Source of the DNA: Pseudomonadota bacterium | Lineage (GTDB): Bacteria; Desulfobacterota; Desulfobulbia; Desulfobulbales; SURF-16 | Direction of reading: 5' to 3' | Assembly: GCA_043809085.1 (NCBI GenBank) | Contig: JAZDEG010000030.1 | Span: forward strand, 21,378 to 85,377 | Length of the DNA: 64,000 bases | Shown here: positions 2,318 through 48,009 of the stretch, one piece after another | Layout: every line of letters begins with the position of its first letter | Position numbering within the stretch: position 1 is the first letter of the stretch | Notes under the pieces: model-generated | Seen by the model: only the letters and a program-made list of their open reading frames with translations | Databases searched by the model: none | Told to the model about the DNA's origin: nothing | Translations under genes and position numbers: made by a program

Positions 2318-2917
2318 TTACAGCGCGGATTCAATAGCCTTGCTCAGCTTGGCATCAATAACTTCAACCAGATGAGCCTCACTGTAATCATTGTCTTTAC
2401 GAAGGGTCTTGGTCGTTGTGCCAAAGGCCATGCGCAGTTTCTTACTGTTGACCAACTCAAGTGCCTTATGGAGTCTTTTTTTCATTTCATCAGGCGCGAT
2501 ACCCTCGGCGTGGCCAAGGGGACCAAGCTCACGCACCTTGGCGGTGAACTCGGTGATCAGCTTGACAAAACGAGGAGCCTCAGCGGCGGAAGCCCACTGA
2601 AGATTATAGCGGGCCGGATTTACTCCGATTCCACTTAAAATTTTATGAACAAGAACATCTACACCCATTGCATCGTAATTACCTACCTGGTAATGACATT
2701 CGCCGAGTTGTCAGCCGCCGGTGAATATACCGGCCGCTCCCTCAATAAATCCTTGCAGGATGAAAGAGGGATCGATGCGTCCGGTACACATGACCCGGAT
2801 TGTTCGCATATTGGGGGGATACTGATACCTTGAAACACCAGCAGCATCTGCTGCGGCATAGCAGCACCAGTTGCAGAGAAAACCCAGTATTTTCGGGTTG
2901 AATGCTTCCTTTGTCAT
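2318..2917 (-). CDS. mvhD: MvhD/FlpD-like protein (methyl-viologen-reducing hydrogenase delta subunit family), a selenoprotein with Sec encoded by the TGA at 2711..2713.
   Basis: Track ORFs 2711..2917 and 2318..2668 are in the same frame. Read-through gives ...GAAGIFTGG-U-QLGECHYQVGNYDAMGVDVLV..., so the TGA replaces the first Cys of the MvhD GCxxGxCHY motif. Total length is 199 aa. Confidence 0.85.
2678..2694 (-). promoter_or_regulatory. Candidate bacterial SECIS hairpin for mvhD.
   Basis: On the minus strand, 16 nt after the UGA: AUUACC-AGGUA-GGUAAU. This is a 6-bp stem with a 5-nt loop containing GGU. Confidence 0.5.
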
Positions 2918-3013: not shown

Positions 3014-6000
3014 TTACAGCTCACCAAATGCCTTTATCTGGGCGTTGATCTGCTCCATGGTAAAGCCGCCCATGGAAATAGCGAATGTGGGACAACGTGA
3101 CGAGCAGATACCACACCCCTTGCAGGAAGCGGAGATGGTGTGCGCTTTCTTTATCTTGCCATCCTTTACCATTTCGATGGCCTGATAAGGACAAAGGCTT
3201 GCACAAATACCGCAACCGATACACTGTTCTTTATCAACATGAGAAACAATCGGTTCAACGGAAACATGTCCTTTGACAAGTGGAATGGCAGCCTTTGCTG
3301 CGGCAGCCTGAGCCTGTACGATGATTTCATCTAGAGGCTTTGGTGAATGCGCCAGTCCGCACACATAGACACCATCCACGGCAAGTTCAACCGGCCGCAA
3401 TTTCACATGGGCTTCCAGATAGAATTTGTTCTCATTGATCGGAATTTTCAACAATTTGCTCAGAGTTTCGGTATCTTCCGGCACAATGCCGACACTCAAG
3501 ACGATGAGATCAGGGTTCAGACTGACCTCTTCCTGGAGCAAGGTGTCAAAGAAAGACACATTCACATTATTGCCTTTTTTTGTCACTTCCGGTTTGCGGT
3601 CAACCTCGTAGGGAATGAAAACAACGCCTTTTCCCCTGGCTTCCAGATACGCATCTTCTGCATATCCATAGGTGCGCATATCCCGGTAGAGAACAATAAC
3701 CTGGGATTTCGGGTTAATCTCTTTTACCTTCAGGGCATTTTTCACTGCGGTATTACAGCAGACCTTGCTACAGTACTTCAGATCATCGCCGCGGGATCCC
3801 GCGCACTGAATCATCACAACCGAGTCCGGCGCGCGATTTTTTGCTTTACCGGCAAGCGTGGTTTCCAGTTCATGCTGAGTGACAACCTTTGTTGACTGTC
3901 CCAGCATATACATATCAGGGCGATGTTCCCTGCCGCCGGTGGCAACAATGATGACCCCATGATCAATGGTCAGCTCGGTTTCCTTCTTGCCTTTAACGGT
4001 TTTAACCACGGAAGAGAAATTACCGACAAAACCATTGACCGCCACCAGTTCACCGCTGGTCAATACCTCGATTTTTTTGTTTTTCTCAACCCTTTTTACC
4101 AGGTCTTTGATCATCTGGGGCGTATTTTCCCCTTTGATGGTGTCCTGCATTTTTGCCGCATGACCGCCGAGATTATCGTTCTTTTCAACCAGATAACATT
4201 GGAAACCCTGGTCGGCCAGATTTTCCGCAGCAGTGAGACCGGCAATACCTCCACCAATGATCAGTGCCTGGGGGGTAACAGGGACAGTCTGTTCCGGAAG
4301 GGGTCGCAAGTGACGTGCCTTGGCAATTCCCATCCGTACCAGGTCTTTTGACTTAAGGGTTGCCGCATCAGGTTCCTGTGCATGAACCCAGGAACACTGA
4401 TCCCGGATATTAACCATTTCAAAAAGAGAACGGTTAAGCCCTGCATCTTTCAAGGTTTCCTGAAAAAGCGGTTCATGGGTACGGGGTGAACAGGCGGCCA
4501 TGACGATCCTGTTCAACTTGTGCTCTTTGATCTTGTTCTTGATGATCTCCTGGGCATCTTGGGAGCAACTGTAAAGGCTGTCACTGAAATAGGTGACATT
4601 TTCCATTCCGCCGGCATAATCAACAACATTCGGCACATCAACCGTAGAGGCGATATTGATACCGCAACGGCAGACAAAAACGCCGATACGAACCTCATCG
4701 TCTTCGTTTACGAGCTGCTCAACAGGATATTCCTTATGAACAATGCCGGTGCCGCGCTGTTGTTTAATGAGCGCTGCGGCGAGGCCTGCTGCGGCACTTG
4801 ACTGGGTGACGCTTTCAGGAATGTCTTTTGGCCCCTGAAAGGCGCCCGCAACAAAGATGCCCTCGCGGCTGGTATTTAAGGGAGCAAAGGTGTCGGTCTT
4901 GCAGAAATCATATTTATTCAATTCAAAGTTACCGATCCTGGCAAGATCCTTGGCGCTTTTTGGCGAGTCGAGACCAACGGACAGAACTACCATGTCAAAG
5001 GCATCAAAATGATGACTTTCGGCAAGGGTTGAATAGGTCAGTTTAAGCTTTTTGCCCCACGGCATGACATCGGCAACTTTGGCGCGAACGAATTTGATGC
5101 CGAACAGTTCCTCCGCCCGGATGCGAGCCGCATCGAAATCCTTGCCCTGGGTCCGCATGTCCATGTAAAAAATGGTGATTTCGCATTCAGGATCATGTTC
5201 CTTGGCAACCATGGCTTCTTTGATAGCATACATGCAGCACACGGAGGAGCAGTATCCATTGTCACAGCCAAGATCACGGGACCCGACACACTGGATAAAG
5301 GCAATTTTTCCTGGGTGGCGTTTATCGGAAAGGCAGCGAACCTCACCCATGAAAGGTCCCGAGGGGTTGAGCAGTCTTTCGAACTCCAGGCTGGTGACAA
5401 CATCGGGATGTTTGCCGTAACTGTATTTGGCGAGGGCCTCGTCCGGCACCTTGCCGAATCCTGGAGCCATGATCACCGCCCCGACATGAAGTTCCCGTTC
5501 AACCGGTTTCTGTGAAAAATCGATGGCATGACTGCGGCAGACCGGTACGCATATCTTGCATGTATCGTGCTTCAGGTGAAGACATGCGTTTGGATCAATA
5601 AAATAGGTGGCCGGTACCGCCTGGGGATAATCAATATGAATCGGTCGGGTAATAGACAGTCCTTCGTTATAGCTGTCCACCATATGGCGCGGACAATATT
5701 GAGTACACAGACCGCAGGCCGTGCATTTATCGGCGTCGATGTAACGGGGGTTCAAGCGGACTTTGGCTTTGAATTCACCAGGTTTTCCATCAAGAGAAAG
5801 AAAATCGGCGTTGCTCAGAATTTCAATATTGGGAGACCGACCGGCCTCAACCAGCTTCGGAGCGAGGATTCAAAGAGAACAGTCGTTGGTGGGAAATGTT
5901 TTATCAAGCTGAGCCATGGCGCCACCCACTGCTGCTGATTTTTCCACCAGATAGACATAATATCCCAGTTCGGTTAGATCGAGGGCGGCCTGCACCCCGG

Positions 6001-6058
6001 CAACACCGCCGCCGACAACCATCACAGATCCGGACCTGTGTTCCATTGCTTTACCCAT
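3014..6058 (-). CDS. hdrA: Large tandem HdrA-like flavoprotein (heterodisulfide reductase subunit A family) with a C-terminal 2x[4Fe-4S] domain. Selenoprotein, with Sec encoded by the TGA at 5870..5872.
   Basis: Track ORFs 5870..6058 and 3014..5755 are in the same frame. Read-through gives ...[30 protein letters not shown]...[18 protein letters not shown]. There are two FAD-binding modules ([14 protein letters not shown] and [14 protein letters not shown]). An HdrA N-terminal-type Cys cluster ([11 protein letters not shown]) lies between them. The C-terminus carries [12 protein letters not shown] and [12 protein letters not shown]. Total length is 1014 aa. Confidence 0.85.
5834..5848 (-). promoter_or_regulatory. 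Candidate bacterial SECIS hairpin for hdrA.
   Basis: On the minus strand, 21 nt after the UGA: GAGGCC-GGUC-GGUCUC. This is a 6-bp stem including one G-U pair, with a GGUC tetraloop. Confidence 0.5.
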
Positions 6059-6129: not shown

Positions 6130-9100
6130 TTAGGCGATTTTTTCTATACGGATCGCACATACCTTGGCCTCGGGGATCTTACACACCGGATCAAGTGCGT
6201 CATTGGTCAACAGGTTTGCCGCCGCTTCCTTATAGTGAAAAGGAATAAAGACGATACCTGGCTCAACCCGGTCTGTGATTCTTGCCGGCAGAGAAATTGA
6301 TCCACGTCGCGAACGAGCCCTGACTTCTTCACCGTCTTTAATTTCCAGTTGTGCGGCTGTATCCGGATGTATCTCGACATAGGGAGAAGGAGCCGAAAGT
6401 TCAAGAATCTGGGACCGTCTGGTCATAGTGCCGGTGTGATACTGATAGAGAACTCTTCCGGTAGTGAGCACCAACGGATACTCGGAGTCGGCTACCTCCT
6501 TTGGTCCTTTCCAGGCGATCTCAGTAAATTTTGCCCTGCCGATGGGAAAGGTATCGACAAACAGTACGGGGGTTCCGGGGTGGTCTTCACTGGGACACGG
6601 CCACTGCAAACCACCTTCTGCATCAAGACGCCTGTGAGACATACCGGCCATATGGGGCCAACTGCGGCAGATCTCGCTGAAAACTTCTTCAGGAAAAGGA
6701 GCAAACGCGCGATACTTGCCTCCACCGTTCAGGTTGAATTGTCTGCCCGGCCTGCTCATCATGCTCTGAACTGTTCCCACCATCCGGGCGGTAACCATGT
6801 GGATAATGGAAAGATCATCCATGGCATGACCTGGTGGGCAGACAGCGCGCCGCACCCGCTGGACCCGTCTTTCGGTGTTGGTAAAAGTTCCGTCTTTTTC
6901 AGCAAAACATGCGGCCGGCAACACGACATCGGCAAGTTCGGCGGTACAGGTCATGAAGATATCCTGTACCACCAGAAAATCAAGTTTTTCCAGTGCTTTG
7001 GTAGCATGTCCGCTGTTCGGATCACTGAGAACGGGGTTCTCTCCCATTATCCACATGCCGGAAATTTTTCCATCCAAAATGGCGGGGATCATTTCCGTTG
7101 CCGTTAAACCCGGATTTTCAGGAACAGGGGTTCCCCAAATTTCTTCAAAATGTTTCCGGGCATTCTCATCGGCGACCGGTCGGTAACCGGGCAAATTCGA
7201 AGGAACGCAACCCATATCGCTTGATCCCTGCACATTGTTTTGGCCGCGCAAGGGATTAAGACCCGCACCGTGTTTGCCGAGATTCCCGGTAAGCAGAGCC
7301 AGATTGGCAAGGGTTCGGACGTTGTCCGTTCCGGATGTGTGCTGGGTTATGCCCATGGTATAGTAAATACCGGCTCGTTCCGCCTTGGCATAAATCCGTG
7401 CCGCTTCTTCAATATCGGCAGATGGGACACCGGTTATTTTTTCAGCCCATTCGGGAGTGCAGTGACTGACGGAATCTCTCATCTTTTCAAAATGTTCCGT
7501 CCGCTCTTCAATATATTTTTTATCATGAAGGTCATCCCGGATAATAACATGACACATTGCATTAATAAGGGCAGCATCACTGCCAGGGCGTTGCCGCAGC
7601 CACACTCGAGCACTTTTGGTCAGCTCAATCTGACGAGGGTCGGCAACAAGGAGTTTTGCCCCCTTTTTAACCGCATGCATCATGCGCACCGCGATGACCG
7701 GATGGGCTTCTGTTGTGTTGGAGCCGATAACCAGCAGCACCTCGTTGTCTTCAATGCCGGCGATCGTGTTGCTCATTGCCCCGGAACCAAGCGTTGTTGC
7801 AAGACCTGCAACCGTGGGAATGTGTCAGTAGCGGGCACAGTGATCGACATTGTTGGTGCCGATCACCGATCTGAAAAATTTCTGGAATGCATAATTTTCT
7901 TCGACCGTGCACCGGGCAGAGGAAAGACCCCCAAGGGAATCAGCCCCCTTCTCAGCCATTATTCGGGCAAATGAACCGGCGATAAAATCAAGGGCATCAT
8001 CCCATCTTGCCGGTTCCAGCGGTCCGCCTGGTCTTCTGCGGATCAGCGGTCTTTTAAGTCTGTCAGGGTGATGAATAAAATTATGGCCGAAACGCCCCTT
8101 AACACAGAGATCCCCATAATTCGGGCCGACTTCGGGATCAGCGGTGACCTCCATGATGGTCTGCCCCTTGACCCTGAGAATTATCTGGCATCCTGTTCCA
8201 CAGTATGGGCAGGTTGTCCTGACATCATGAACCTCTTCAGACTGAATAGGAACGATTCTGTGTTTTTTGTTCAGTGCTCCGGTGGAACAATTGTCCACGC
8301 ATTTTCCGCAGGAAACGCAGTTGTCCTTGAAGCGAATGACAAGTCCGTGCGGCCTGCCCTCTTCATCAACGGATTCGGCTTTCAATTCAAGGGCATCATA
8401 TTCGCAGACCCTCAGACAACGCTGACAGAAGATGCACTTGTTGGGATCAATATCAATGGCTTTATGAGTTGTGTCTATAGGATAAACCGGAATTGTCCCC
8501 ATACCGGTTTTATTGATATTAACATCATAGGCAATGTCGAGTTCCTTGAGGTTACATCTGTCAAATGCAGTGCAGCCGCAGGAGAGGCAACGTTCCGCTT
8601 CACGGCGCACCATTTTTTCGGTAAAGCCGAGTTTTATCTCATCAAAATCCTGTTTGCAGACTTCGGGCGGTCTTTGCGGCATCTTTTCGCGAAGCTTGAC
8701 ATTAATGCCTTCAAAGTTTTTCAGACTGACGTCATCAAAGCCCTTGCCACGGGTAAAATTGAATCGGCTTTCCGCAGCTTCCTTGTCAACACCCATGACA
8801 TAAGAGTGAATGTTTTCTGCGGCACGGCGACCTGTTACAACAGCTTGAATAACGGATTTAACACCGCTTACGGAGTCACCACCGGCAAAAACACCTTCAA
8901 TGTTAGTCTGTGAAGAACGAGGGTTGGCGACTATCATTCCCCTGTCCGACAGCTCAAGGGATGCTTCAAGTTCTCCTCCCGGCATGACACCATCAATGGC
9001 GAATTGCCCTATGGCGCTTATGACGGTATCAACCGGCAGTGCATTTTTGGATTCGGGAATCGGTACGGGTTCTCGTCTGCCGCGGCTGTCAGGTTCGCCA

Positions 9101-10353
9101 AGTTTCATCCTGATAAGATTAAGCATCAGCCGGGTATTTTCGTTGGAGCGGGAGCAGAGATCCACTGGTGACGCCATCAGCAAAAACTGAACGCCTTCAT
9201 GTTCCGCCTCGCGAATGTTACGCTGATTGGCCGGCATTTCTATCTGGGCGCGGGGATAGACAACGGTAACCTCATGCACGCCGAGTCGAAGAAGCGAACG
9301 GGCGACCTCCATAGCAATGTTGTTTCCGCCAATGACAGCAGCTCGGCGGCCCAGATCAAGCTTTCTTCCGTCGTTAACCATGCGCAGAAAACGGGTCGCC
9401 GTATAGACATGATCATAGTTGGCGCATGGAATATCAAGTGGTTGATCAACAGAAGCGCCGATGCCGATAAAAATTGCATCAAACCCTTGATCTTGAAGAT
9501 CCTGCAAGGAAAAATCTTTTCCCCACTGCTGACTGAGACGTATAGAGATCCCCATTTTCAGAATGGAGTTCACTTCATAATCAAGCACATCCTTGGGTAT
9601 TTTGTAATTGAGAAAACCATAGCGCAAAGCACCGCCTAGTTGAGGGGATGCCTCAAAAATAGTGACGTCATGCCCCTTCCGTGTCAGGAAATAGGCCGCG
9701 GTCAAACCGGAAGGGCCGCCACCGATAACCGCCACCCTTTTTCCGGTAGGTTTGTCCTTGGGAATATTGAGTTCAATCTCATGATTCATGCACCAATCGG
9801 CGACAAATCTTTTGAGATGGTTAATGGAAACAGGTTCATCGACCAAGAGACGGCGGCACCGCGTTTCACAAAACCTGGGACAGACACGTCCCACGGAAAA
9901 AGGAAGAGGATTGCGCTCCATTACCAGTCGAAGGGCCTCCTCATACTCTCCCCTGGCAATATGGGCAATATATCCCTGGACATTTATCTGACCGGGGCAG
10001 GTAAGATTGCACGGAGCCTTACAATCACCGAAATGGGTATTGGAAATGTCGGCAAGGCGTTGTTTTCGATGGGTAATTACCGGTTTGGAGTCGGTCTCAA
10101 TTTCCATCCCATCCTTGGCAAAGGTAATGCAGGCACGGAAAAGCCCTTCTGTTGAAAGTGTTGATTTAAGTCTATATTGACTGAAATCTTTTATTTCAAC
10201 AGCACATAAACCGCATGGATTCTCAGAAAGGGTGTTTTTTACGTAGCACAGGGTCGGGATATTAATATCCGAACGTCTGGCAACTTCAAGAATTGTCAAA
10301 CCAGCCTCGGCGACAATCTCCATGCCGTTCATTTTAAGGGTTATCGTCGACAT
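6130..10353 (-). CDS. fdhA: Formate dehydrogenase alpha subunit (Mo/W-bisPGD) fused to an N-terminal 2Fe-2S ferredoxin domain, a GltD/NfnB-like NAD(P)H-FAD oxidoreductase domain and 4Fe-4S domains. Selenoprotein, with Sec encoded by the TGA at 7825..7827.
   Basis: Track ORFs 7825..10353 and 6130..7776 are in the same frame. Read-through gives ...[33 protein letters not shown]..., compared with the E. coli FdhF motif CARVUHGPSVAGL. The N-terminus has a 2Fe-2S motif (PTLCY...NPCGLCAVE) and a GltD-like region (RVAVIGGGPSGLTAAYFL...VFAGGD). It also has CIFCQRCLRVC, CVSCGKCVDNC and TTCPYCGTGC. Total length is 1407 aa. Confidence 0.9.
7796..7812 (-). promoter_or_regulatory. SECIS hairpin for fdhA.
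   Basis: The minus strand reads UGA CAC AUU CCC ACG GUUGCA-GGUCU-UGCAAC. From memory of the E. coli fdhF SECIS (UGACACGGCCCAUCGGUUGCAGGUCUGCAC), the spacing and the GUUGCAGGUCU core are the same. Confidence 0.75.
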
Positions 10354-10469: not shown

Positions 10470-11825
10470 TCAGGCTGCTGGCTTCCACTCCTTGAGGAAA
10501 GCAGGAAGATGACCGGCCTCGCGAGGACCGATGGTTATCGTCCATTCGGCAAGCTCTTCTTCAAGTTCTCCCTTGATGCTGGCAAGGTATCCGGGGATAA
10601 TAAGTTCACGATGTTTCACCTTGTCAAGGACGCCGGATTTCTTGATGAACTGCGCGATCATATCTGCGCCGAACTTGCCTGCCGCCCATGCGGTCAGCAC
10701 GGAAAGTCCTTCAGTATCCTTGATCAACAACCAGGAGGGAACCTTGCTGCCTTCGATTTCTCCTGAAACGATGAAATAGGTGAGGGAAAAGTTGCAGGTG
10801 ATGAGGACGGGAGAATTTTCACCCGGGCCATTAATACTGTAAACGTCTTCCTGTACGACCATGGGGCGCTGTGGATCAGTGTAAATATTGAGCTGCTCGA
10901 GCAAGAGAGGAAAGAGAATATCGCCCTGCAAATCGGAAAGCACGACAATGCCGGAATATTTGGCAATAAGGACGGAAGCGATCATTGCCTCCATCATAAT
11001 ATCATCGGTCATCTCACAGGGAAAGGCAATCAACGGAAACCCGAGAGGTTTGAATTTGGTCTTGATTGCGGCTCTTCGGGAAACCACATTATCCTCAAGT
11101 GCTGCTCTCATGGTTCGAGCACCGGTATCGATTACCAAGTCTTTGAGTCCTTCGGTCTGCAGTTTTTCGGAAAGATCTACTGCACCATCAAGATTGGTTC
11201 CTCGCAACCCCAGAGGACAGCCGCTTTCTTTTGCCATAGCAGCCATGGCCGAAGCATTTTCTAATGTTGCGCCATATAAAAGGGGTTTGCGTTCTCCGCA
11301 GATTTTTGCACCTTCCGCAAGATTTTCCGCCTTTTCACTCATAAGAATGAGTGAAGCGGTAACCGCTTCGGCAAGAACTTTTTTGATCAGTGCAGTAAAT
11401 TTGCCCTGATCCCCGTCAGCGTCCTTAATCGCTATCAGATCAGCCTTCATCAGGACGCCGACCCTTTCGTAGCGAAGCTTATTGAAACGCTCTATGCGCC
11501 CGTCAACATCGGCGCCATTCATGGCCGTGCTGACCAGAACAGCGATACCGGTAGGGTTTTCAAAACGTTTCTCATGACGGAACAAGCAGGTTTCGCCACC
11601 AGTGGTAAAGGTGTTCTCGCCGGAACCTATTTTGATCGTTCTGACCGGCGGAGCGGAAGCCTCACCGATTGTCGCCTTGGTTTCCTCGGAAACATAAGGA
11701 CATTTTTCAATTTCAGCCTGCCCGGCGGCAACTTTCATGGCAAAGGCAAGACAGGTTGGAATCCCACACTCCCCGCAGTTCTTTTTGGGGAGCATTTTAA
11801 GGATTTGTATACCAGTAAGAGCCAT
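10470..11825 (-). CDS. acsC: Corrinoid iron-sulfur protein, large subunit (AcsC/CdhE).
   Basis: 451 aa. The N-terminus MALTGIQILKMLPKKNCGECGIPTCLAFAMKVAAGQ...CPYVS is the characteristic AcsC 4Fe-4S motif. Confidence 0.9.
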   Translation of the reverse strand: MALTGIQILKMLPKKNCGECGIPTCLAFAMKVAAGQAEIEKCPYVSEETKATIGEASAPPVRTIKIGSGENTFTTGGETCLFRHEKRFENPTGIAVLVSTAMNGADVDGRIERFNKLRYERVGVLMKADLIAIKDADGDQGKFTALIKKVLAEAVTASLILMSEKAENLAEGAKICGERKPLLYGATLENASAMAAMAKESGCPLGLRGTNLDGAVDLSEKLQTEGLKDLVIDTGARTMRAALEDNVVSRRAAIKTKFKPLGFPLIAFPCEMTDDIMMEAMIASVLIAKYSGIVVLSDLQGDILFPLLLEQLNIYTDPQRPMVVQEDVYSINGPGENSPVLITCNFSLTYFIVSGEIEGSKVPSWLLIKDTEGLSVLTAWAAGKFGADMIAQFIKKSGVLDKVKHRELIIPGYLASIKGELEEELAEWTITIGPREAGHLPAFLKEWKPAA

Positions 11826-14111: not shown

Positions 14112-16760
14112 TTATTTTCCGCTTGTAAGGCTGTTAATCAGAGACTTTGTGAGGTTAACGGCTTTCGGATGTCTCATAATCAGGACCTCACCACCAGAAA
14201 GCAGCATACAGGTAGCGGTTATAGCTTCCATCATGACACCTCGTGTTTCCATATTTCCTATCATGTCATCAGAGGGAAGCCGACATTCTTTCGCCTTCCA
14301 GACCTCCCGTCCGAGATTGCAGATAATCGGCACCTGCAGTTTTTCGTCCTGCTGGGTGAGAGCTGCCAAGCGGATGCGCTCCATGACTGAGTAGGTGTAC
14401 TCGATACCGTAACCAAGGGCGCCGACAGAAGGATCCATCATGACGGAACTAAGGGGTACACCGAGGTTCTGGAGGAGAATATTGAGCTGTTTGGCAAGAT
14501 TGACATCGATGGGGGAAGCTGCTACCAGTGGATTCTGGAATGCCATGGCCGTGGCACCCAGAGAACGATAATTGGCATCGCCCAACGGCGCCAGACAGAC
14601 TTTTTTGTCCCCGGTCAGGGATGTAATCTCGCGCAACGTTTCCGTGTCCTTTTCTGCATTACCGCAACCCCAAACAATAACCGGCACGTCAATGTTGTTG
14701 ATGACATCGGCCGCTGCCTTGGCCGCCTCGGCAGCATTTCTGTTCATACCATTGGGGTCGGTGCTCACAAGGGAAAGACAGATTGCCTCGGCATTGTATT
14801 CATTGATGCACTTTCTTGCCCAGGCAAGAGGGTTATCGAGAACACCCTGATAATGACGGGCAAGGGAATCAGGCCACTCATCCGGTTTGACATCAAGGAC
14901 ATCCAAGGCAATGACCGGCTTGTTGGGCATTGCACCTTCGAAAAGGTGAAACGGCAAAGAAGCTTCTCCGCCGATCTTAAGCGCTTTATCACCGCTTCCC
15001 AGCAGCACCTCTTTAATGGCGCCGGAATAATTTATTTTATAAGAATCCGCAGGGATCTTGGCAGCGCGCTCGACTAGAGTTGTTTTCTCAACCGCCAGCT
15101 CTTGAGCAGCGAGTTCCGCCGGAACAGCTACTGCGGCGGGTGCAGTTTTTGCTTCAGCAGCTTTCTTGGCCTCGTCGGCAGCCTTTGCCTCAGCGACCTT
15201 CTTGGCTTCTGCCTCGGCCTTTGCTTCAGCAGCTTTCTTGGCCTCGTCGGCAGCCTTTGCCTCAGCGACCTTCTTGGCTTCTGCCGCGACTTTTGCTTCA
15301 GCAGCTTTTTGGGCCTCGTCGGCAGCCTTTGCTTCAGCAGCTTTCTTGGCTTCTTCCGCAGCTTTCTCAGCAGCTGCTTTCTGCACAGTATCATCAACTT
15401 TTGCTTCAGTTGTTTTTTTGACCTCTGTAACAGCCGGGCGAGCGGGAGCAGCACCAGCATCCTGCGGCTGACGTTTCAGTACTGCTTCGGCGCTTGCGAA
15501 ACTTGACAGCGCCTCAAACTGATCGTCGGTCAAATTAAAGGCTTTCCTCAGGGCATTAAGGCCCATCTGCACAGATTGCAACGCCATTTGACGTTCTCTT
15601 TCGTTCATCTCATGCTCTCCTGCATCTTCATATTCTGTGGCAAAGCCGGCTGGAGCCGATACGGCCGCGGCAGCGCGCATTTTTTCAACCTCTTGTCGGG
15701 CCTGGGCGATAATTTTTTCAGCCTCAACCCTTGCTTCAGCAAGAAGCTTCTCATGATCAACCGCTTTTGCCGTTTCTGCGGGAGCGGTTACGATTTCTAT
15801 AGGAGTTTCGACCGGTATTTTTGCAACAGCTGCATCTTCTTCAAACACAGGTCTTGGTGCAAGTTTTGCCCGTTTGACTATCTCGGGAACAGCTTCCTCC
15901 CACTCGATAGCCATGATGTGCACTCCGGATACACCTTTTATTTCCTTGACCCGATTGATAATATCAACACAGATGTTGATACCCTCTTCCTGTTTGTCCT
16001 TGGCATCCTTCATCCGACTGAGGACTTCATCAGTCACATCCATACCGGGGACAAAATTTTTCATGTACTTGGCCATGCCAAGGGATTTGGGAGGGGTAAC
16101 ACCGGCGAGAATATACGCCTTTTCATGGATACCCAGATCACATACCATTTCCATGAAGCGAGAGAATTTATCCACATTGTAAATAATCTGGGTCTGAACA
16201 AAGTCAGCGCCGTTAGCTACTTTTTTGCCGAGACGTGGGGCTCTGAATTCAAAAGGATTGGCAAAAGGATTGGCGGCACAGCCAAGGAAAAGGCGAGGCT
16301 CGGCAGATTTAATTTCCTCACCGCACTGAAATTTCTTATCATCACGCATCGCTCGAACCATGCCGAGTAGCTGGATCGAATCCATGTCGAAAACACCTTT
16401 GGATCCGGGATGATTGCCGAATTTCTGATGATCACCGGTCAAACACAACAGATTTTTCAAGCCAAGAGCAGCGGCTCCCAGAATGTCACTCTGCATGCCG
16501 ATTCTGTTGCGGTCACGGCATGTCATCTGAATGACCGGTTCAACCCCTTCCTGAAGCGTGATAAGACCGGCCGCGATACTGGACATGCGGACAATTGCTG
16601 TCTGGCAGTCAGTAATATTGACGGCGTCAACATGACCTTTCAGTATCCGTGCCTTTTTCCTGACAATTTCAGGGTCGCTGCTTTTCGGCGGCCCCAGTTC
16701 CCCGGTTACGGCAAAGCCACCGGAGGTCAGAATTTTCTCTAAACGACTTCCCGATTTCAT
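14112..16760 (-). CDS. metF-acsD: Fusion protein of N-terminal methylenetetrahydrofolate reductase (MetF) and C-terminal corrinoid Fe-S protein small subunit (AcsD/CdhD), joined by a long Ala/Glu/Lys linker.
   Basis: Single 882-aa ORF with no internal stop. The N-terminal ~300 aa look like MetF (VTGELGPPKSSDPE...NITDCQTAIVRMSS...CLTGDHQKFGNHP). The C-terminal ~320 aa look like AcsD (LKIGGEASLPFHLFEG...VPVIVWGCGNAEKD...DPSVGALGYGIEYTYSVMERIRLAAL...LIMRHP). Confidence 0.85.
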   Translation of the reverse strand: MKSGSRLEKILTSGGFAVTGELGPPKSSDPEIVRKKARILKGHVDAVNITDCQTAIVRMSSIAAGLITLQEGVEPVIQMTCRDRNRIGMQSDILGAAALGLKNLLCLTGDHQKFGNHPGSKGVFDMDSIQLLGMVRAMRDDKKFQCGEEIKSAEPRLFLGCAANPFANPFEFRAPRLGKKVANGADFVQTQIIYNVDKFSRFMEMVCDLGIHEKAYILAGVTPPKSLGMAKYMKNFVPGMDVTDEVLSRMKDAKDKQEEGINICVDIINRVKEIKGVSGVHIMAIEWEEAVPEIVKRAKLAPRPVFEEDAAVAKIPVETPIEIVTAPAETAKAVDHEKLLAEARVEAEKIIAQARQEVEKMRAAAAVSAPAGFATEYEDAGEHEMNERERQMALQSVQMGLNALRKAFNLTDDQFEALSSFASAEAVLKRQPQDAGAAPARPAVTEVKKTTEAKVDDTVQKAAAEKAAEEAKKAAEAKAADEAQKAAEAKVAAEAKKVAEAKAADEAKKAAEAKAEAEAKKVAEAKAADEAKKAAEAKTAPAAVAVPAELAAQELAVEKTTLVERAAKIPADSYKINYSGAIKEVLLGSGDKALKIGGEASLPFHLFEGAMPNKPVIALDVLDVKPDEWPDSLARHYQGVLDNPLAWARKCINEYNAEAICLSLVSTDPNGMNRNAAEAAKAAADVINNIDVPVIVWGCGNAEKDTETLREITSLTGDKKVCLAPLGDANYRSLGATAMAFQNPLVAASPIDVNLAKQLNILLQNLGVPLSSVMMDPSVGALGYGIEYTYSVMERIRLAALTQQDEKLQVPIICNLGREVWKAKECRLPSDDMIGNMETRGVMMEAITATCMLLSGGEVLIMRHPKAVNLTKSLINSLTSGK
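15151..15366 (-). repeat. Three tandem 72-nt units (internal 36-nt sub-period) inside the metF-acsD linker. They encode AEAKKAAEAKAADE-type repeats.
   Basis: Units start at 15151, 15223 and 15295. The first 63 nt of units 1 and 2 are identical (gcttcagcagctttcttggcctcgtcggcagcctttgcctcagcgaccttcttggcttctgcc). Unit 3 is diverged. Confidence 0.9.
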
Positions 16761-19948: not shown

Positions 19949-22162
19949 TTACCTGTTTCTGCCTTCAGCCAACTTGACGATAATATCGTTGGCCTGGCCG
20001 AGTCGAGTGACAAGGGTCTTGAAAAAGTGCTTTGCAACATTCGGATGCTTTTCGATGATCTCCATGATCTTGTCGCCGGGAAAACGCTTGATTGCCGATC
20101 TCCCCTTGGACAGGATTGATGCGGAACGGACGACTCCGGAGATGGCGGACATCTCGCCGAAATATTCATTTGGTTCGGTTATTTCGGCGATTTTCTTGCC
20201 GTCTTTAACCACCATGAGCGCCCCCTGAATAAGTTGAAAAAAATCTATGTCGCTGTTCCCCTGGCGAATGATGACATCCCCATCCTCATACCGTTCAATA
20301 TCAGGGTTAACCAGGTACGCAGGCAGGCTTTCCTCGGTAACGACAGTTTTTTTCATAACCTCATCAAGGCTGGTTACTCCTTGAATTGCCTTGCGGATAG
20401 CCGCATTGCGCAAAGGAATCATGCCTTCTTGAATGGCAACCTTGCGCAGTTGGTCTTCAGGCACCTCGGCGCTGATTGCCTTGGCTACCTCATCCGTAAT
20501 TTCCATCAGTTCAAAAAAACCGACCCTGCCCTTGTAACCACCGCCGCGGCAGACCGGACACCCTTTAGGACCCCAGAGGTTAGTGAGATTCGCCAACTGA
20601 TTTTCACTGAACCCGATACCGAGCAGCTCTTTTTCATCGGGCAAAGGAATCTCGACTTTGCATTCCGGGCACAGACGACGCCCCAGCCTCTGGGACTGAA
20701 CCATGGTAATGGCTGATGCCAGCATATAGGGCGGGATGCCGATATCAACCAGACGACCGATAGTTGCGGCGCAATCATTGGTGTGCAGGGTGGAAAAAAC
20801 CAGATGGCCGGTCATGGCCGCCTTGATGGCGATTTCGGCGGTTTCCATATCGCGGATCTCCCCCACCATGATGATGTCCGGATCCTGCCGGAGAAACGCC
20901 TTAAGGGCCGCGGCAAAGGTCATTCCAACTTCCTGGTGAACGTTGACCTGGTTAATTCCCTTGAAGTTAAACTCAACCGGATCTTCCGCTGTCAGGATTT
21001 TGGTGTCTTCATTGTTCAGCGAGTTCAAAGCGGAATAGAGAGTAACTGTTTTACCGCTACCGGTGGGGCCTGTTACCAGCAGGAGCCCCTGGGGGCGATT
21101 GAGACATCGTTTCAGGGTTTCGAAAACCTCAGGCTCAAAACCGAGTTTGGTCAGGTCGACATTAAGCGAACTTTTGTCCAGAATACGGAGAACGATGCTT
21201 TCGCCAAAAAGGGTGGGCAGGGTGGAAACGCGAAAATCAACCACCTTGTTGCGGCCGATACGCATCTTGATCCTGCCGTCCTGGGGAACGCGGCGTTCGG
21301 TAATATCAAGGTTTGAAAGAATCTTCACCCTGGAATTCAAGGCGTTTTTGATACTCAGGGGAAGATTCATGGATTTGTAAAGAGAGCCGTCAAGACGGTA
21401 ACGCACCTGAAGGGATTTCTCATACGGCTCGATATGGATATCGCTGACTCCGTCCTTGACTGCCTTGATCAGGATACCATTGACCAGTTTGATGATGGGA
21501 GCGTCCGAGGCGGAAAACTCCTCGGCAGTCCCTTCATCCTCTTCGATGGCCATTTCGTCGGCCGCTTCAGAAGCAAGTGACCCGAAGTCGTCGATACTTG
21601 CGACATCTTCTTCTTCCTCAATCTCCTCAGCTGCGCCAAGAAGCTCACGGTACTCTTCATCGGAAATCTTATAGTATTTTTTGTACGCCTCAAGAATATC
21701 CTTTTCCGTTGAAACACAGACAGAAAGAACCATTTTCACTTCTGTCTGCAACTCCTCAACCGCACTGGTATCGGTCGGCTCCGCCATGGTGATCTGCAGA
21801 GTCTTGCCGGTCATGCGCAAGGGCAGGGCACAATATTTTTTGACAATTTTGAAGGGAATGGTTTTAAAAACGTCAGGATTAGGCGGCTCTTTCTTGATAT
21901 CAACGGAGGGGAAATTATGGAGCCGACTCAGGACATTGAGAATAGTCGTATCTTCTATATGTCCGAGCTTGATCAGAATACTGCCCAGGCGCTGGCCGGT
22001 CTTCTTTTGAATGGCAAGCGCTTCATCAAGCTGACTACTGAGGATATGCCCCTCTTTGCGGAGCAATTCGCCAATCTTGACCTTGCCGGCACCGGACTGA
22101 TCTTTTATCGTCGTCCTGAGTGCGGATTTTTTATCGGGAATATTTTTTATTGGTAGCGCCAT
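19949..22162 (-). CDS. GspE/PilB/MshE-family secretion ATPase with an N-terminal MshEN-type domain and a C-terminal cyclic-nucleotide-binding domain.
   Basis: 737 aa. It has Walker A (VTGPTGSGKT), the Asp and His boxes (EDPVEF, GHLVFSTLHTND) and a tetracysteine motif (CPEC...CPVC). The C-terminal ~125 aa carry the cNMP signature (FGEMSAISGVVRSASI). The N-terminus carries two 24-residue MshEN-like motifs. Confidence 0.85.
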   Translation of the reverse strand: MALPIKNIPDKKSALRTTIKDQSGAGKVKIGELLRKEGHILSSQLDEALAIQKKTGQRLGSILIKLGHIEDTTILNVLSRLHNFPSVDIKKEPPNPDVFKTIPFKIVKKYCALPLRMTGKTLQITMAEPTDTSAVEELQTEVKMVLSVCVSTEKDILEAYKKYYKISDEEYRELLGAAEEIEEEEDVASIDDFGSLASEAADEMAIEEDEGTAEEFSASDAPIIKLVNGILIKAVKDGVSDIHIEPYEKSLQVRYRLDGSLYKSMNLPLSIKNALNSRVKILSNLDITERRVPQDGRIKMRIGRNKVVDFRVSTLPTLFGESIVLRILDKSSLNVDLTKLGFEPEVFETLKRCLNRPQGLLLVTGPTGSGKTVTLYSALNSLNNEDTKILTAEDPVEFNFKGINQVNVHQEVGMTFAAALKAFLRQDPDIIMVGEIRDMETAEIAIKAAMTGHLVFSTLHTNDCAATIGRLVDIGIPPYMLASAITMVQSQRLGRRLCPECKVEIPLPDEKELLGIGFSENQLANLTNLWGPKGCPVCRGGGYKGRVGFFELMEITDEVAKAISAEVPEDQLRKVAIQEGMIPLRNAAIRKAIQGVTSLDEVMKKTVVTEESLPAYLVNPDIERYEDGDVIIRQGNSDIDFFQLIQGALMVVKDGKKIAEITEPNEYFGEMSAISGVVRSASILSKGRSAIKRFPGDKIMEIIEKHPNVAKHFFKTLVTRLGQANDIIVKLAEGRNR

Positions 22163-47571: not shown

Positions 47572-48009
47572 ATGAAAATACTGACAACTCCGCGCATGGA
47601 GCGCTGCATAGGCTGCCATTCCTGCTCCCTGGCCTGTGCTCGGCTTGTCCATAAAAAAATATCATGGCAGACTGCGGGAATCAGGATTCATTCCTCCGGG
47701 GGGCTTTCAACCGGTTTTATCGCTAAAAACTGCCTTGCCTGTGATCCGCCACCCTGCGCTGCGGCCTGCCCCACCTCCGCCTTTTCTCCGCGAAAAGGCG
47801 GAGGCATTATTGTCAAAAAAAATCTGTGCATCCGTTGCGGGGAATGCGCTCCCGCCTGTCCGGTGGACGCGGTTTTCCTTGACGGGAACGGAGACCCCTA
47901 TGTCTGCATTCACTGCGGCCGATGCACGTCCTTCTGCCCCCATGACTGCCTGGAAATGAAGGAACTTGAACAAACCTCAGCGGAAGCGGAAAAGGAGGAA
48001 AAGGCATGA
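47572..48009 (+). CDS. 4Fe-4S dicluster ferredoxin-like protein, AOR-associated.
   Basis: 145 aa with four Cys clusters (CIGCHSCSLAC, CLACDPPPCAAACP, CIRCGECAPACP, CIHCGRCTSFCP). It overlaps the next gene by 4 nt (ATGA). Confidence 0.8.
   Translation: MKILTTPRMERCIGCHSCSLACARLVHKKISWQTAGIRIHSSGGLSTGFIAKNCLACDPPPCAAACPTSAFSPRKGGGIIVKKNLCIRCGECAPACPVDAVFLDGNGDPYVCIHCGRCTSFCPHDCLEMKELEQTSAEAEKEEKA

Follow-up and report, generated by a model that had tools for sequence, protein, structure and literature searches.

A predicted single-chain selenocysteine formate dehydrogenase with a remodelled nucleotide pocket in a Wood-Ljungdahl gene cluster of the Desulfobacterota

Introduction

Thermodynamically, the bottleneck of the Wood-Ljungdahl pathway is the interconversion of CO2 and formate, and the reductant or acceptor chosen at this step sets the energy yield. 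Which partner is chosen is the question raised by fdhA, a gene at positions 6130..10353 of a 64,000-nucleotide stretch of a Desulfobulbales genome (Desulfobacterota; assembly GCA_043809085.1, contig JAZDEG010000030.1, positions 21,378 to 85,377), hereafter called the window. An earlier note, made from the letters of the window, had described the product as a formate dehydrogenase (FDH) in which a [2Fe-2S] domain, a flavin module resembling glutamate synthase's small subunit (GltD), two ferredoxin-type clusters and a catalytic domain containing selenocysteine (Sec) share one polypeptide. The gene product is most likely a cytoplasmic Sec-containing formate dehydrogenase, or CO2 reductase, of the molybdenum- or tungsten-bis(pyranopterin guanine dinucleotide) (Mo/W-bisPGD) type, and is predicted to serve the Wood-Ljungdahl pathway's methyl branch. 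We consider it moderately probable that this enzyme is linked to a pyridine nucleotide, with the HdrA-like and MvhD-like proteins encoded next to it as accessory partners.

The fusion as such is already known: it is annotated by NCBI, a 2025 paper reported it together with HdrA and MvhD neighbours (PMC12142623), structures of its scaffold have been solved, and NADP-dependent formate dehydrogenases with a GltD-type subunit have been characterised. What is added here is the assignment of the window protein as the putative active counterpart of the 'remnant' domain of StnC and NfnA, a clade-specific remodelling of the predicted NADPH pocket, and the apparent co-travel of the FDH, HdrA-like and MvhD-like genes independently of the Wood-Ljungdahl cluster. 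These findings constitute a testable hypothesis rather than a demonstrated novelty.

Results

One reading frame with an internal selenocysteine codon

The gene and the elements that bear on its decoding are as follows.

6130..10353, minus strand: fdhA fusion gene, a single frame with 1407 codons before the stop, the Sec codon being number 843
7825..7827, minus strand: UGA Sec codon 843, the single in-frame TGA, at which homolog products stop
7772..7830, minus strand: putative Sec insertion sequence (SECIS), with an apical hairpin GUUGCA-GGUCU-UGCAAC at 7796-7812

On translation of the minus strand, the only internal stop of 6130..10353 is the TGA at codon 843 (window 7825-7827), and the plus strand of this interval carries stops throughout and no open frame. 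A mechanical list of open reading frames (ORFs) divides the gene into 7825..10353 (842 aa) and 6130..7776 (548 aa). The earlier note had the coordinates right and named no strand; the gene lies on the minus strand. Its motif positions were likewise confirmed, with TTCPYCGTGC at residue 713, VIGGGPSGLTAA at residue 209 and VIGGNNIAMEVA at residue 340, and the Sec that it placed at residue 843 coincides with the in-frame TGA and a SECIS downstream of it.

Thirteen nucleotides, CGGUUGCAGGUCU, from +14 to +26 relative to the U of the UGA, are identical to the SECIS core of E. coli fdhF, and short-window folding and comparison with E. coli place this region in an apical 6-bp hairpin with a GGUCU loop. 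The Rfam model SECIS_3 matches over all 59 of its positions (window 7830-7772, minus strand; 41.1 bits, E=8.8e-7), a score that lies below the gathering score of 63 and is counted as supporting evidence only. The minimum free energy of the 60 nt 3' of the UGA was no better than that of shuffled sequences (z=-1.37), and a canonical SECIS hairpin was not shown by this measure. Among the homologs, 92 products terminate exactly at the position of codon 843, after CAR[YL], and 28 carry Cys there. Because of the identity with the E. coli fdhF core and the SECIS_3 match, the decoding of TGA codon 843 as selenocysteine is supported.

A GltD module inserted into a NuoG-type formate dehydrogenase

Domain searches, in which every Pfam match exceeded its gathering score, bear out the one-chain fusion of a [2Fe-2S] domain, a flavin adenine dinucleotide (FAD) module of GltD/NfnB type, further Fe-S clusters and a Sec-containing Mo/W-bisPGD formate dehydrogenase. 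From the N-terminus, the parts are the following.

10087..10347, minus strand: N-terminal NuoG/HydA-type [2Fe-2S] domain, residues 3-89 (PF13510 Fer2_4; C36, C47, C50, C75)
8794..10035, minus strand: GltD/NfnB-like module, residues 107-520 (PF14691, PF07992, PDB matches, fold search)
8554..8589, minus strand: junction Cys motif C589-x2-C592-x-C594-x5-C600, a predicted [4Fe-4S] site equivalent to StnC cluster C5
8272..8454, minus strand: ferredoxin-type 2x[4Fe-4S] domain (PF12838 Fer4_7, residues 639-693; C640/643/646/650 and C679/682/685/689)
8068..8223, minus strand: molybdopterin-oxidoreductase Fe4S4 domain with the pterin-proximal cluster (PF04879, residues 711-762; C715/718/722/750, invariant)
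6793..8061, minus strand: Mo/W-bisPGD catalytic domain (PF00384, residues 765-1187; Sec843-His844, and Arg1036 in GLNPLRGQNNVQG)
6154..6474, minus strand: C-terminal Molydop_binding domain, residues 1294-1400 (PF01568)

The annotation with hidden Markov models thus supports the GltD-like FAD module, with Fer4_20 (PF14691) at residues 111-192 and Pyr_redox_2 (PF07992) at residues 206-506, and PDB matches to 4YLF_B (E=4e-88), 5JCA_L (E=7e-83) and 6S6S_G. The module contains two [4Fe-4S] sites (H107/C111/C115/C119, and C158/C162/C166 with K181), the FAD Rossmann motif GGGPSG at residues 211-216 and a second Rossmann domain. An end-to-end alignment links residues 1-655 to PRK12814, a GltD-like 'NAD(P)-binding' family named 'putative NADPH-dependent glutamate synthase small subunit', at 566 bits, which is under the equivalog cutoff of 916.

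Conservation follows the predicted cofactors closely. All predicted Fe-S ligands are kept in at least 118 of 121 close homologs: the [2Fe-2S] ligands C36/C47/C50/C75, in a domain that aligns with that of StnC, are found in 119, and the junction motif (C589/592/594/600) and both ferredoxin-type CxxCxxCxxxC sets are invariant. The catalytic part matches NCBIfam TIGR01591 (Fdh-alpha) with residues 713-1403 over model positions 1-672 of 672, at 815.8 bits against a cutoff of 666.25. Its best PDB relatives are FdhF of the Thermoanaerobacter kivui hydrogen-dependent CO2 reductase (7QV7_S, E=1e-209), 9T1S_L, 7VW6_A, 6TG9_A and E. coli FdhH (1AA6_A). Judged by these ranked PDB and profile scores, the catalytic domain appears closest to the FdhF-type, true formate dehydrogenases, and the further marks of a TIGR01591-type enzyme are present as well: Sec-His and Arg, four Cys in the Fe4S4 domain, the Molydop_binding domain and the SECIS hairpin. 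A Sec/Cys-His-Arg triad has been described for the active sites of other formate dehydrogenases (PMC8965080), and in the fusion His844 and Arg1036 are kept in 27 of 27 full-length homologs. Formate oxidation or CO2 reduction, and a content of Mo or W, are predicted on these grounds.

An insertion of about 21 residues in the catalytic part (residues ~1193-1215, around VGTVQSMMSRPGRQFNLNGGGKYRAF) is shared, among 12 aligned proteins, only with the closest full-length homolog (P0001).

The nearest structural relatives of the N-terminal half are StnC of the Sporomusa ovata StnABC complex (8OH5) and NfnA of Caldicellulosiruptor (9BOV) and Thermococcus sibiricus (9N5U), which align with residues 1-698 at E~1e-142 and are ~40% identical over the N-terminal ~700 residues. 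The parts follow one another in the same order in these proteins: [2Fe-2S], GltD/NfnB-like FAD module with two clusters, CxxCxC cluster, ferredoxin-type clusters and Fe4S4 domain. In StnC, a GltD domain is integrated into a NuoG-like protein, which leaves the motifs HxxxCxxxCxxxCP and CxxCxCxxxxC at the junctions; the latter is described for NsoC as well as StnC (PMC7483475). Both motifs, the former as H107/C111/C115/C119-P120, are present and invariant in the fusion, and the window protein also has the Lys ligand. The order of parts given in the earlier note therefore stands; the head-to-tail string that it implied does not, and the protein is better described as a NuoG-type FdhA into which a GltD module has been inserted. 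A model of the N-terminal 842 aa, with a mean predicted local distance difference test score of 74.6 (high for the [2Fe-2S] and GltD domains and low where the Fe-S loops lack their cofactors), points the same way in a fold search: it matches 9BOV_A and 8OH5_C with template-modelling scores of 0.62-0.64 over ~830 columns, and NfnB, GltD and DPD match its flavin module alone.

StnC holds six [4Fe-4S] clusters and one [2Fe-2S] cluster. Its electrons run from FAD through C7, C6, C5, C4 (the [2Fe-2S] cluster) and C3 to the partner subunits, and by way of C2 and C1 the chain reaches an FdhF-like domain, which is inactive and has been called a non-functional evolutionary remnant; the NfnA paper gives the same verdict on the A2-A4-A5 branch, where the pterin site is incomplete. 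By analogy, the fusion should carry one [2Fe-2S] and six [4Fe-4S] clusters, and the count in the earlier note was too low. In contrast to the inactive domain of StnC and NfnA, that of the window protein is complete, with Sec-His-Arg and the C-terminal domain. The scaffold, junction motifs and Lys ligand of StnC/NfnA are all present, and neither a vestigial Fdh domain nor adjacent NuoE/NuoF-like genes were found. The protein is, on sequence, best seen as a catalytically intact form of the StnC/NfnA scaffold.

The fusion recurs in more than 100 independent protein clusters

Among 5.8 billion proteins searched, ~30 full-length homologs of 1360-1392 aa were found in Thermodesulfobacteriota, Dissulfuribacter and Dissulfurimicrobium; their NCBI name is 'formate dehydrogenase subunit alpha'. 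A further ~90 clusters of 829-846 aa, from NCBI, JGI, ENA and Logan assemblies, end at the Sec codon. The ORFs of the Cys-type homologs run without interruption and give exact translations from their own contigs, and an identical 842-aa product occurs in a second assembly, GCA_964542105.1. A check for frameshifts and assembly errors found none involved, the ~30 Cys-type full-length and ~90 Sec-truncated homologs sharing the architecture. Since more than 100 independent clusters have it, with the ligands conserved, the fusion is not an assembly artefact.

To place the fusion within its superfamily, 1.84 billion representatives clustered at 50% identity were searched (HMMER) with the 842-aa part, which gave 4794 proteins at E<=1e-30. 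Nearly all of the best 150 of these span most of the query, and by length they can be sorted into classes. Eight beta-like proteins below 720 aa (658-706 aa) match residues 1-700. Thirteen of ~800-900 aa include about half that stop right after CAR[LV] and represent Sec-truncated fused formate dehydrogenases. The largest class (121 proteins of 900-1300 aa) is StnC/NfnA-like, lacks the active site (CAR-C/U-H) and covers the C-terminal domain with a mean of 0.15, against 0.94 in full fused enzymes. Eight full fused enzymes above 1300 aa carry CAR[LV]CH and [PV]LRGQ[NS]N; a ninth representative of that length (P0229) is without the active site.

A scan of genome contigs, dominated by the generic pattern LRGQNNVQ and returning mostly ordinary NuoG-type fdhA genes, added four fusions of the same order, from Desulfobacterales, Desulfobia, Desulfurivibrionaceae and another deltaproteobacterial metagenome-assembled genome (MAG). 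At three loci, the gene immediately upstream of a NuoG-type fdhA (with an in-frame TGA in L012 and L032) encodes a NuoF-like protein (flavin mononucleotide, FMN, and NADH_4Fe-4S domains) with a C-terminal GltD module:

L012, 6375-9437: NuoF-GltD protein of a deltaproteobacterial MAG
L023, 6330-9416: NuoF-GltD protein of a Dehalococcoidia member
L032, 6255-9425: NuoF-GltD protein of an Anaerolineales member

A shorter GltD-bearing version without the FMN domain lies upstream of a NuoG-type fdhA in a Lachnospiraceae member (L079, 7500-9431), and a GltD-upstream-of-fdhA layout was seen in Pirellulales (L025, L028) by tblastn only. These arrangements appear to be an alternative way of pairing GltD with a formate dehydrogenase. 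The large protein upstream of fdhA in other phyla had been considered as an HdrA-GltD 'Rosetta stone' fusion; this was rejected, as it consists of a NuoF-like (FMN) part and GltD.

Separately, a 1251-aa protein of a Dehalococcoidales member (L014, 3030-6785) combines the N-terminal scaffold with a Molybdopterin domain, is 32% identical in the catalytic part and has no Molydop_binding domain. It may be a StnC/NfnA-like or intermediate form.

A remodelled pyridine-nucleotide pocket

Of the two dinucleotide-binding motifs that the earlier note had counted, that for FAD is canonical and the second is altered, with Asn in place of the middle Gly and Pro-Arg in place of Arg-Arg.

9313..9330, minus strand: non-canonical second dinucleotide loop G342-G343-N344-N345-I346-A347 (GGGNTA in StnC)
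9250..9258, minus strand: Y366-P367-R368 at the end of beta2, replacing YRR, whose Arg pair binds the 2'-phosphate of NADP (PMC8965080)

Aligned with StnC, the protein also has K251 at the position of StnC R239 (NfnB R201), near N5 of the FAD, and V125 at that of C114; K181, equivalent to StnC K170, is retained. Functions have been assigned to these positions elsewhere. GxGxxA is a proposed NADP(H) motif (PMC7483475), and in NfnI, as in the NADP-preferring Fdh3B of Thermococcus onnurineus, the 2'-phosphate is stabilised by the Arg-Arg pair (PMC8965080). Full activity of StnC requires the Arg near FAD N5, which NfnB needs for bifurcation; a Lys ligand at the FAD-proximal cluster marks the non-bifurcating StnC, NfnB having Glu. 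The NADPH-binding signature of GxGxxA plus Arg-Arg was not found in FdhA.

These changes belong to a clade. GGNN[IT]A-type loops occur in ~97 and [YF]-P-R in ~106 of the 121 close homologs, a spread that argues against random decay of the second pocket, and the FAD motif GGGP[AS]G, Lys181 and both GltD clusters are kept in 120 of the 121 or nearly so. The canonical set of GGGNTA, YRR and Arg is found in ~95% of the representatives of the wider superfamily, most other fused active formate dehydrogenases included. In the clade at least 46% identical to the window protein, the Arg-Arg pair is gone throughout, replaced by YPR, YER, YQR, HDR or HSS, and three of eight tabulated members have Glu or Asp at this position. 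An acidic residue at that site of the Rossmann fold is a classical hallmark of preference for NAD over NADP.

The claim of a pyridine-nucleotide site and a CO2-reducing site on one chain can be upheld in part: the chain is single, and the nucleotide site is plausible, not established. A dinucleotide site probably persists, and specificity for NADPH is unlikely; even binding of a dinucleotide in the canonical manner is uncertain for the GGNNIA sub-clade. Because the Arg-Arg signature is lost and the glycine loop altered, NAD(H) or relaxed specificity appears more likely than a strict requirement for NADPH.

HdrA-like and MvhD-like selenoprotein genes adjoin fdhA

The statement of the earlier note that no beta or gamma subunits are encoded nearby did not survive inspection of the downstream genes: a Sec-encoding hdrA-like gene begins 71 bp after the fdhA stop and is followed, after 96 bp, by a Sec-encoding mvhD-like gene, and the trio recurs elsewhere. 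In order, fhs, a PilB-like gene, folD, cooS, a methylene-tetrahydrofolate reductase:AcsD fusion, acsB, acsC, fdhA, hdrA-like and mvhD/FlpD-like genes share one strand, so that fdhA, hdrA and mvhD are three successive selenoprotein genes. The immediate neighbours of fdhA are:

10470..11825, minus strand: acsC, the gamma subunit of CO dehydrogenase/acetyl-CoA synthase (CODH/ACS), directly upstream of fdhA (NF003195, 597.8 bits, above cutoff)
3014..6058, minus strand: hdrA-like flavoprotein gene, 1014 aa, candidate partner, with Sec TGA 5870-5872 in TNDCSL-U-ILAPK
2318..2917, minus strand: mvhD/FlpD-like gene, 199 aa, candidate partner (PF02662), with Sec TGA 2711-2713 in FTGG-U-QLGECHY

The hdrA-like gene starts at ATG 6058 (ORF callers begin at TTG 5755), and its product has a second Rossmann domain of FAD/NAD type and a C-terminal 2x[4Fe-4S] domain; in the mvhD-like gene, a hairpin AUUACC-AGGUA-GGUAAU lies downstream of the TGA.

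Adjacent, co-oriented hdrA and mvhD genes accompany the fused formate dehydrogenase in the window and at three further loci. A groundwater deltaproteobacterium (L083) has exactly the same order of fdhA, hdrA and mvhD, also in a Wood-Ljungdahl context, and such an operon context was found in L004 too. In Dissulfuribacter thermophilus (L082) and a MAG (L085), hdrA-like comes first, followed by mvhD and then fdhA; stop and start codons overlap, and no MetF or Acs genes lie within 8-10 kb. In L082, L085 and L083, the flanking genes encode full-length orthologs of the HdrA-like and MvhD-like proteins of the window (56%/49% and 73%/68% identity; 56% and 49% for L082 and L085). In a Desulfurivibrionaceae member (L003), HdrA follows the fused enzyme. 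Because L082 and L085 are without MetF, we argue that at least part of the HdrA/MvhD linkage is to the formate dehydrogenase itself, and that the FDH, HdrA-like and MvhD-like genes appear to travel together independently of the Wood-Ljungdahl cluster.

The linkage is not universal. In L084, where the FDH gene comes after acsE, no HdrA-like gene is in view, and no HdrA or MvhD gene is adjacent in L086, L092 and L093. There, in one sub-clade of Cys-type fused enzymes, a C_GCAxxG_C_C protein of 256-260 aa is encoded directly upstream of the fused gene (L086 7139-7909, L092 7215-7997, L093 7132-7914), and FdhD directly downstream in L092 and L093. All four sampled fused formate dehydrogenases with a canonical NADPH site are stand-alone genes with no redox neighbours. 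An HdrA-like gene, usually together with MvhD, adjoins the remodelled enzyme in 6 of 10 contexts against 0 of 4 for the canonical site, a contrast that is not significant (Fisher p=0.085) and comes from a small sample of loci that are not phylogenetically independent; a link between remodelling of the site and HdrA/MvhD adjacency is suggestive only. No HdrB or HdrC could be made out among the window's annotated ORFs or in L082/L085, and the annotated ORFs in the rest of the window include no NuoE/F-like, FdhD or selenium-machinery genes.

Several other features of these loci deserve mention. The reductase:AcsD gene (14112..16760, minus strand) encodes 882 aa, with methylene-tetrahydrofolate reductase (PF02219, residues 6-298) fused to CODH/ACS delta (PF03599, residues 584-830); the fusion is also present in L083 (842 aa) and L004, and the genes are separate in L084. 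The window cluster showed no Pterin_bind/AcsE gene, and L084 has one between acsC and fdhA. Between fhs and folD lies the gene of a PilB-type type IV pilus ATPase (19949..22162, minus strand) whose N-terminal part is a c-di-GMP-binding domain of MshE type and whose C-terminal part includes a CRP-like stretch. An aldehyde:ferredoxin oxidoreductase of the tungsten-enzyme family (AFOR_N, AFOR_C) is encoded at 48006..49757 on the plus strand, which is compatible with use of tungsten by the organism and not decisive for the metal of the formate dehydrogenase. In L082, a SelB gene (14247-16232) comes after the fused enzyme although that enzyme has a Cys active site.

Discussion

From the reading frame with its domains, ligands and catalytic residues, from the SECIS, and from the patterns of conservation and synteny, we infer a scheme that extends to the cofactors present, the path of the electrons, the coenzyme, the direction in which catalysis runs and the interaction with partners. 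Formate would be oxidised, or CO2 reduced, at the pterin site of Sec843, His844 and Arg1036. The electron path would run from the cluster of the Fe4S4 domain over the ferredoxin-type pair to the [2Fe-2S] cluster and onward via the CxxCxCx5C cluster to the pair of the GltD module, so that, by homology to the StnC and NfnA structures, seven Fe-S clusters would link the pterin site and the FAD, the flavin-adjacent one being ligated by Lys181. The FAD would exchange hydride with a pyridine nucleotide, as in Moorella FdhAB and T. onnurineus Fdh3. The MvhD-like and HdrA-like selenoproteins would probably tap the same Fe-S chain as accessory partners: the point at which StnAB dock on StnC, beside the [2Fe-2S] and ferredoxin-type clusters, may offer a natural tap for them or for ferredoxin. 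A one-chain design can suffice, because fused enzymes with a canonical NADPH site occur as stand-alone genes.

Several points weigh against a pyridine-nucleotide-linked enzyme. N344 sits where Gly normally contacts the pyrophosphate and might impair the binding of any dinucleotide, the Arg-Arg of the 2'-phosphate site is Pro-Arg, and the Arg near FAD N5 is Lys. Conservation of the HdrA-MvhD neighbours, with gene overlaps in L082 and L085, hints at a partner other than free pyridine nucleotide. With NAD(H) alone, CO2 reduction is thermodynamically unfavourable at the quoted potentials, so that a simple NADH-linked enzyme would fit the oxidative direction only. The choice between Mo and W, the FAD itself and the number of clusters are likewise all deduced. 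In the literature, we found no enzymology for any member of the fused clade, no measured electron acceptor for a Wood-Ljungdahl formate dehydrogenase of the Desulfobacterota, and no paper giving the coenzyme of the fused enzyme in complete-oxidising sulfate reducers and sulfur disproportionators.

The most serious alternative, to which we assign a distinctly smaller but real chance, is that the fused protein is the substrate-oxidising arm of a flavin-based bifurcating or confurcating complex of FdhA, MvhD and the HdrA-like protein. The remodelled GltD pocket would then no longer be a free NADPH site; formate electrons would pass via MvhD to the flavin of HdrA and be split between ferredoxin and a higher-potential acceptor, e.g. 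NAD(P)+, and in reverse, reduced ferredoxin and NAD(P)H would drive CO2 reduction. The direct succession of the three selenoprotein genes and the full-length orthologs that flank the enzyme in two gene orders (with HdrA downstream in L003) favour this arrangement, as does the co-expression of the whole cluster in Desulfurivibrio dismutans (PMC12142623). The four canonical-site enzymes without such neighbours, the docking of a separate bifurcating module on the StnC/NfnA scaffold and the solved methanogen Fdh-MvhD-Hdr complexes (7BKB) can be added. Set against this, 4 of the 10 clade contexts are without an adjacent HdrA-like gene (L084, L086, L092, L093), and the contrast with canonical-site enzymes falls short of significance among non-independent loci. 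The HdrA/MvhD genes of acs operons in acetogens and syntrophs are usually assigned to methylene-tetrahydrofolate reductase, and the window cluster encodes a MetF domain; no HdrBC genes, nor another defined module for a high-potential acceptor, were seen among the annotated ORFs; and the GGNNIA/YPR pocket shows strong conservation instead of decay, in keeping with a site still in use for binding.

It is improbable, in our estimate, that the enzyme is ferredoxin-linked, with a structural or regulatory flavin module and electrons entering or leaving through the [2Fe-2S] or ferredoxin-type clusters of the Fe-S chain. Thermodynamically, reduced ferredoxin is a fitting donor for CO2 reduction, Fdh3A of T. 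onnurineus reduces ferredoxin by itself (PMC8965080), and the nucleotide motifs are non-canonical. The retention of the FAD motif, Lys181 and the GltD clusters in ~120 of 121 sequences, however, would be hard to explain for a purely structural module, and simpler ferredoxin-dependent formate dehydrogenases do without GltD.

The chance is very slight that the protein is a StnC/NfnA-type transhydrogenase subunit whose dead Fdh-like domain has been mis-annotated. The N-terminal similarity invites this reading, and StnC itself was once annotated as a formate dehydrogenase; it is refuted on sequence grounds by a TIGR01591 score above the equivalog cutoff, by Sec-His, Arg1036 and the Molydop_binding domain, all in contrast to the 900-1300 aa StnC-like class with its missing active-site residues and poorly covered C-terminal domain. 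Upkeep of Sec and SECIS implies selection for catalysis, and no NuoE/NuoF-like StnAB genes are present among the annotated ORFs of the window. Least credible of all, and refuted by conservation, is an artefact of frameshift, chimeric assembly or two genes joined by misreading of TGA: automated gene callers do split the gene there, but the architecture recurs across NCBI, JGI, ENA and Logan assemblies, in uninterrupted Cys-type homologs and, as the identical 842-aa product, in a second assembly, and the GltD module is internal, with NuoG-type parts on both sides, so that there is no simple gene junction.

A pyridine-nucleotide-linked enzyme with accessory HdrA and MvhD partners can be set beside several known systems. 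In D. dismutans, a 'fused FdhAB' (RS08735) lies at the end of the Wood-Ljungdahl cluster, followed by HdrA/HdrL (RS08730) and MvhD (RS08725), and the cluster is co-expressed (PMC12142623). This resembles the window, where HdrA-like and MvhD genes also follow at the end of the cluster, and L003 has the same order of FDH and HdrA. The authors propose NAD(P)H-dependent CO2 reduction with HdrL feeding electrons (PMC12142623, 2025). Their FdhAB is known from genomics and proteomics alone, is likened to the window protein here by description, and is presented in that paper without mention of altered nucleotide motifs or of a relationship to StnC.

By analogy, the window protein would be a single-chain counterpart of two-subunit FdhAB enzymes such as the NADP-dependent formate dehydrogenase of Moorella thermoacetica. 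The latter is an alpha2beta2 enzyme, with sfrB2 encoding beta and sfrA2 plus fdhF3 encoding alpha, and compared by description it shares Sec, a cytoplasmic location, the Wood-Ljungdahl context and an SfrB-type electron-transfer partner; SfrB is listed among the GltD/NfnB-like NADPH-binding subunits (PMC7483475). It differs in having two subunits rather than one chain, and its NADPH dependence has been shown biochemically. The tungsten enzyme Fdh3 of T. onnurineus (Fdh3A, NfnB-like Fdh3B and two Fe-S subunits) similarly combines a formate dehydrogenase with a flavin subunit modelled on NfnI, and catalyses reversible formate/NADP and CO2/NADPH reactions with a preference for NADP (PMC8965080). 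Its four subunits are separate, its active site has Cys, and Arg204-Arg205, lost in the window protein, are kept. Of the traits common to these NADP-dependent enzymes, the window protein has the GltD/NfnB/SfrB-like FAD module and not the separate subunits.

The methanogen Fdh-MvhD-HdrABC complex (7BKB) provides a precedent for coupling a formate dehydrogenase to MvhD and HdrA, and its FdhA is a relative of the window protein (7BKB_D, E=4e-176). There, the association is physical and genetic and serves flavin-based bifurcation, whereas in the window adjacent genes were read and coupling is hypothetical. The methanogen complex further differs in its F420-type FdhB, its HdrBC and its heterodisulfide acceptor; the flavin module of the window protein is of GltD type. 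StnC and NfnA, finally, combine a GGGNTA/YRR/Arg site with NuoE/F-like partners, where the window has GGNNIA/YPR/Lys and HdrA/MvhD-like neighbours, and StnC C114 is Val125. The Desulfobacterota clade may have exchanged the NuoE/F-type partner of StnABC and NfnABC for the HdrA-like/MvhD-like selenoprotein pair and remodelled its NADPH pocket (G344N, R367P, R251K), which would give a new bifurcating formate dehydrogenase/CO2 reductase; we hold this to be a tentative idea, and one more apt to be wrong than right.

Whichever partner is used, the window protein may serve as an intact comparator for the dead Fdh branch of the StnC and NfnA structures. If it is simply NAD(P)-linked, it would be an ordinary though compact member of the FdhAB kind, and could attract interest as a one-polypeptide CO2 reductase for engineering. 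If the exchange of partners is true, the enzyme would couple formate and CO2 to ferredoxin and pyridine nucleotide and represent a living, active counterpart of the 'evolutionary remnant' Fdh domain. HdrA-like and MvhD-like proteins as true partners would constitute a new combination of modules in flavin-based bifurcation, which would explain how the pathway can be reversible.

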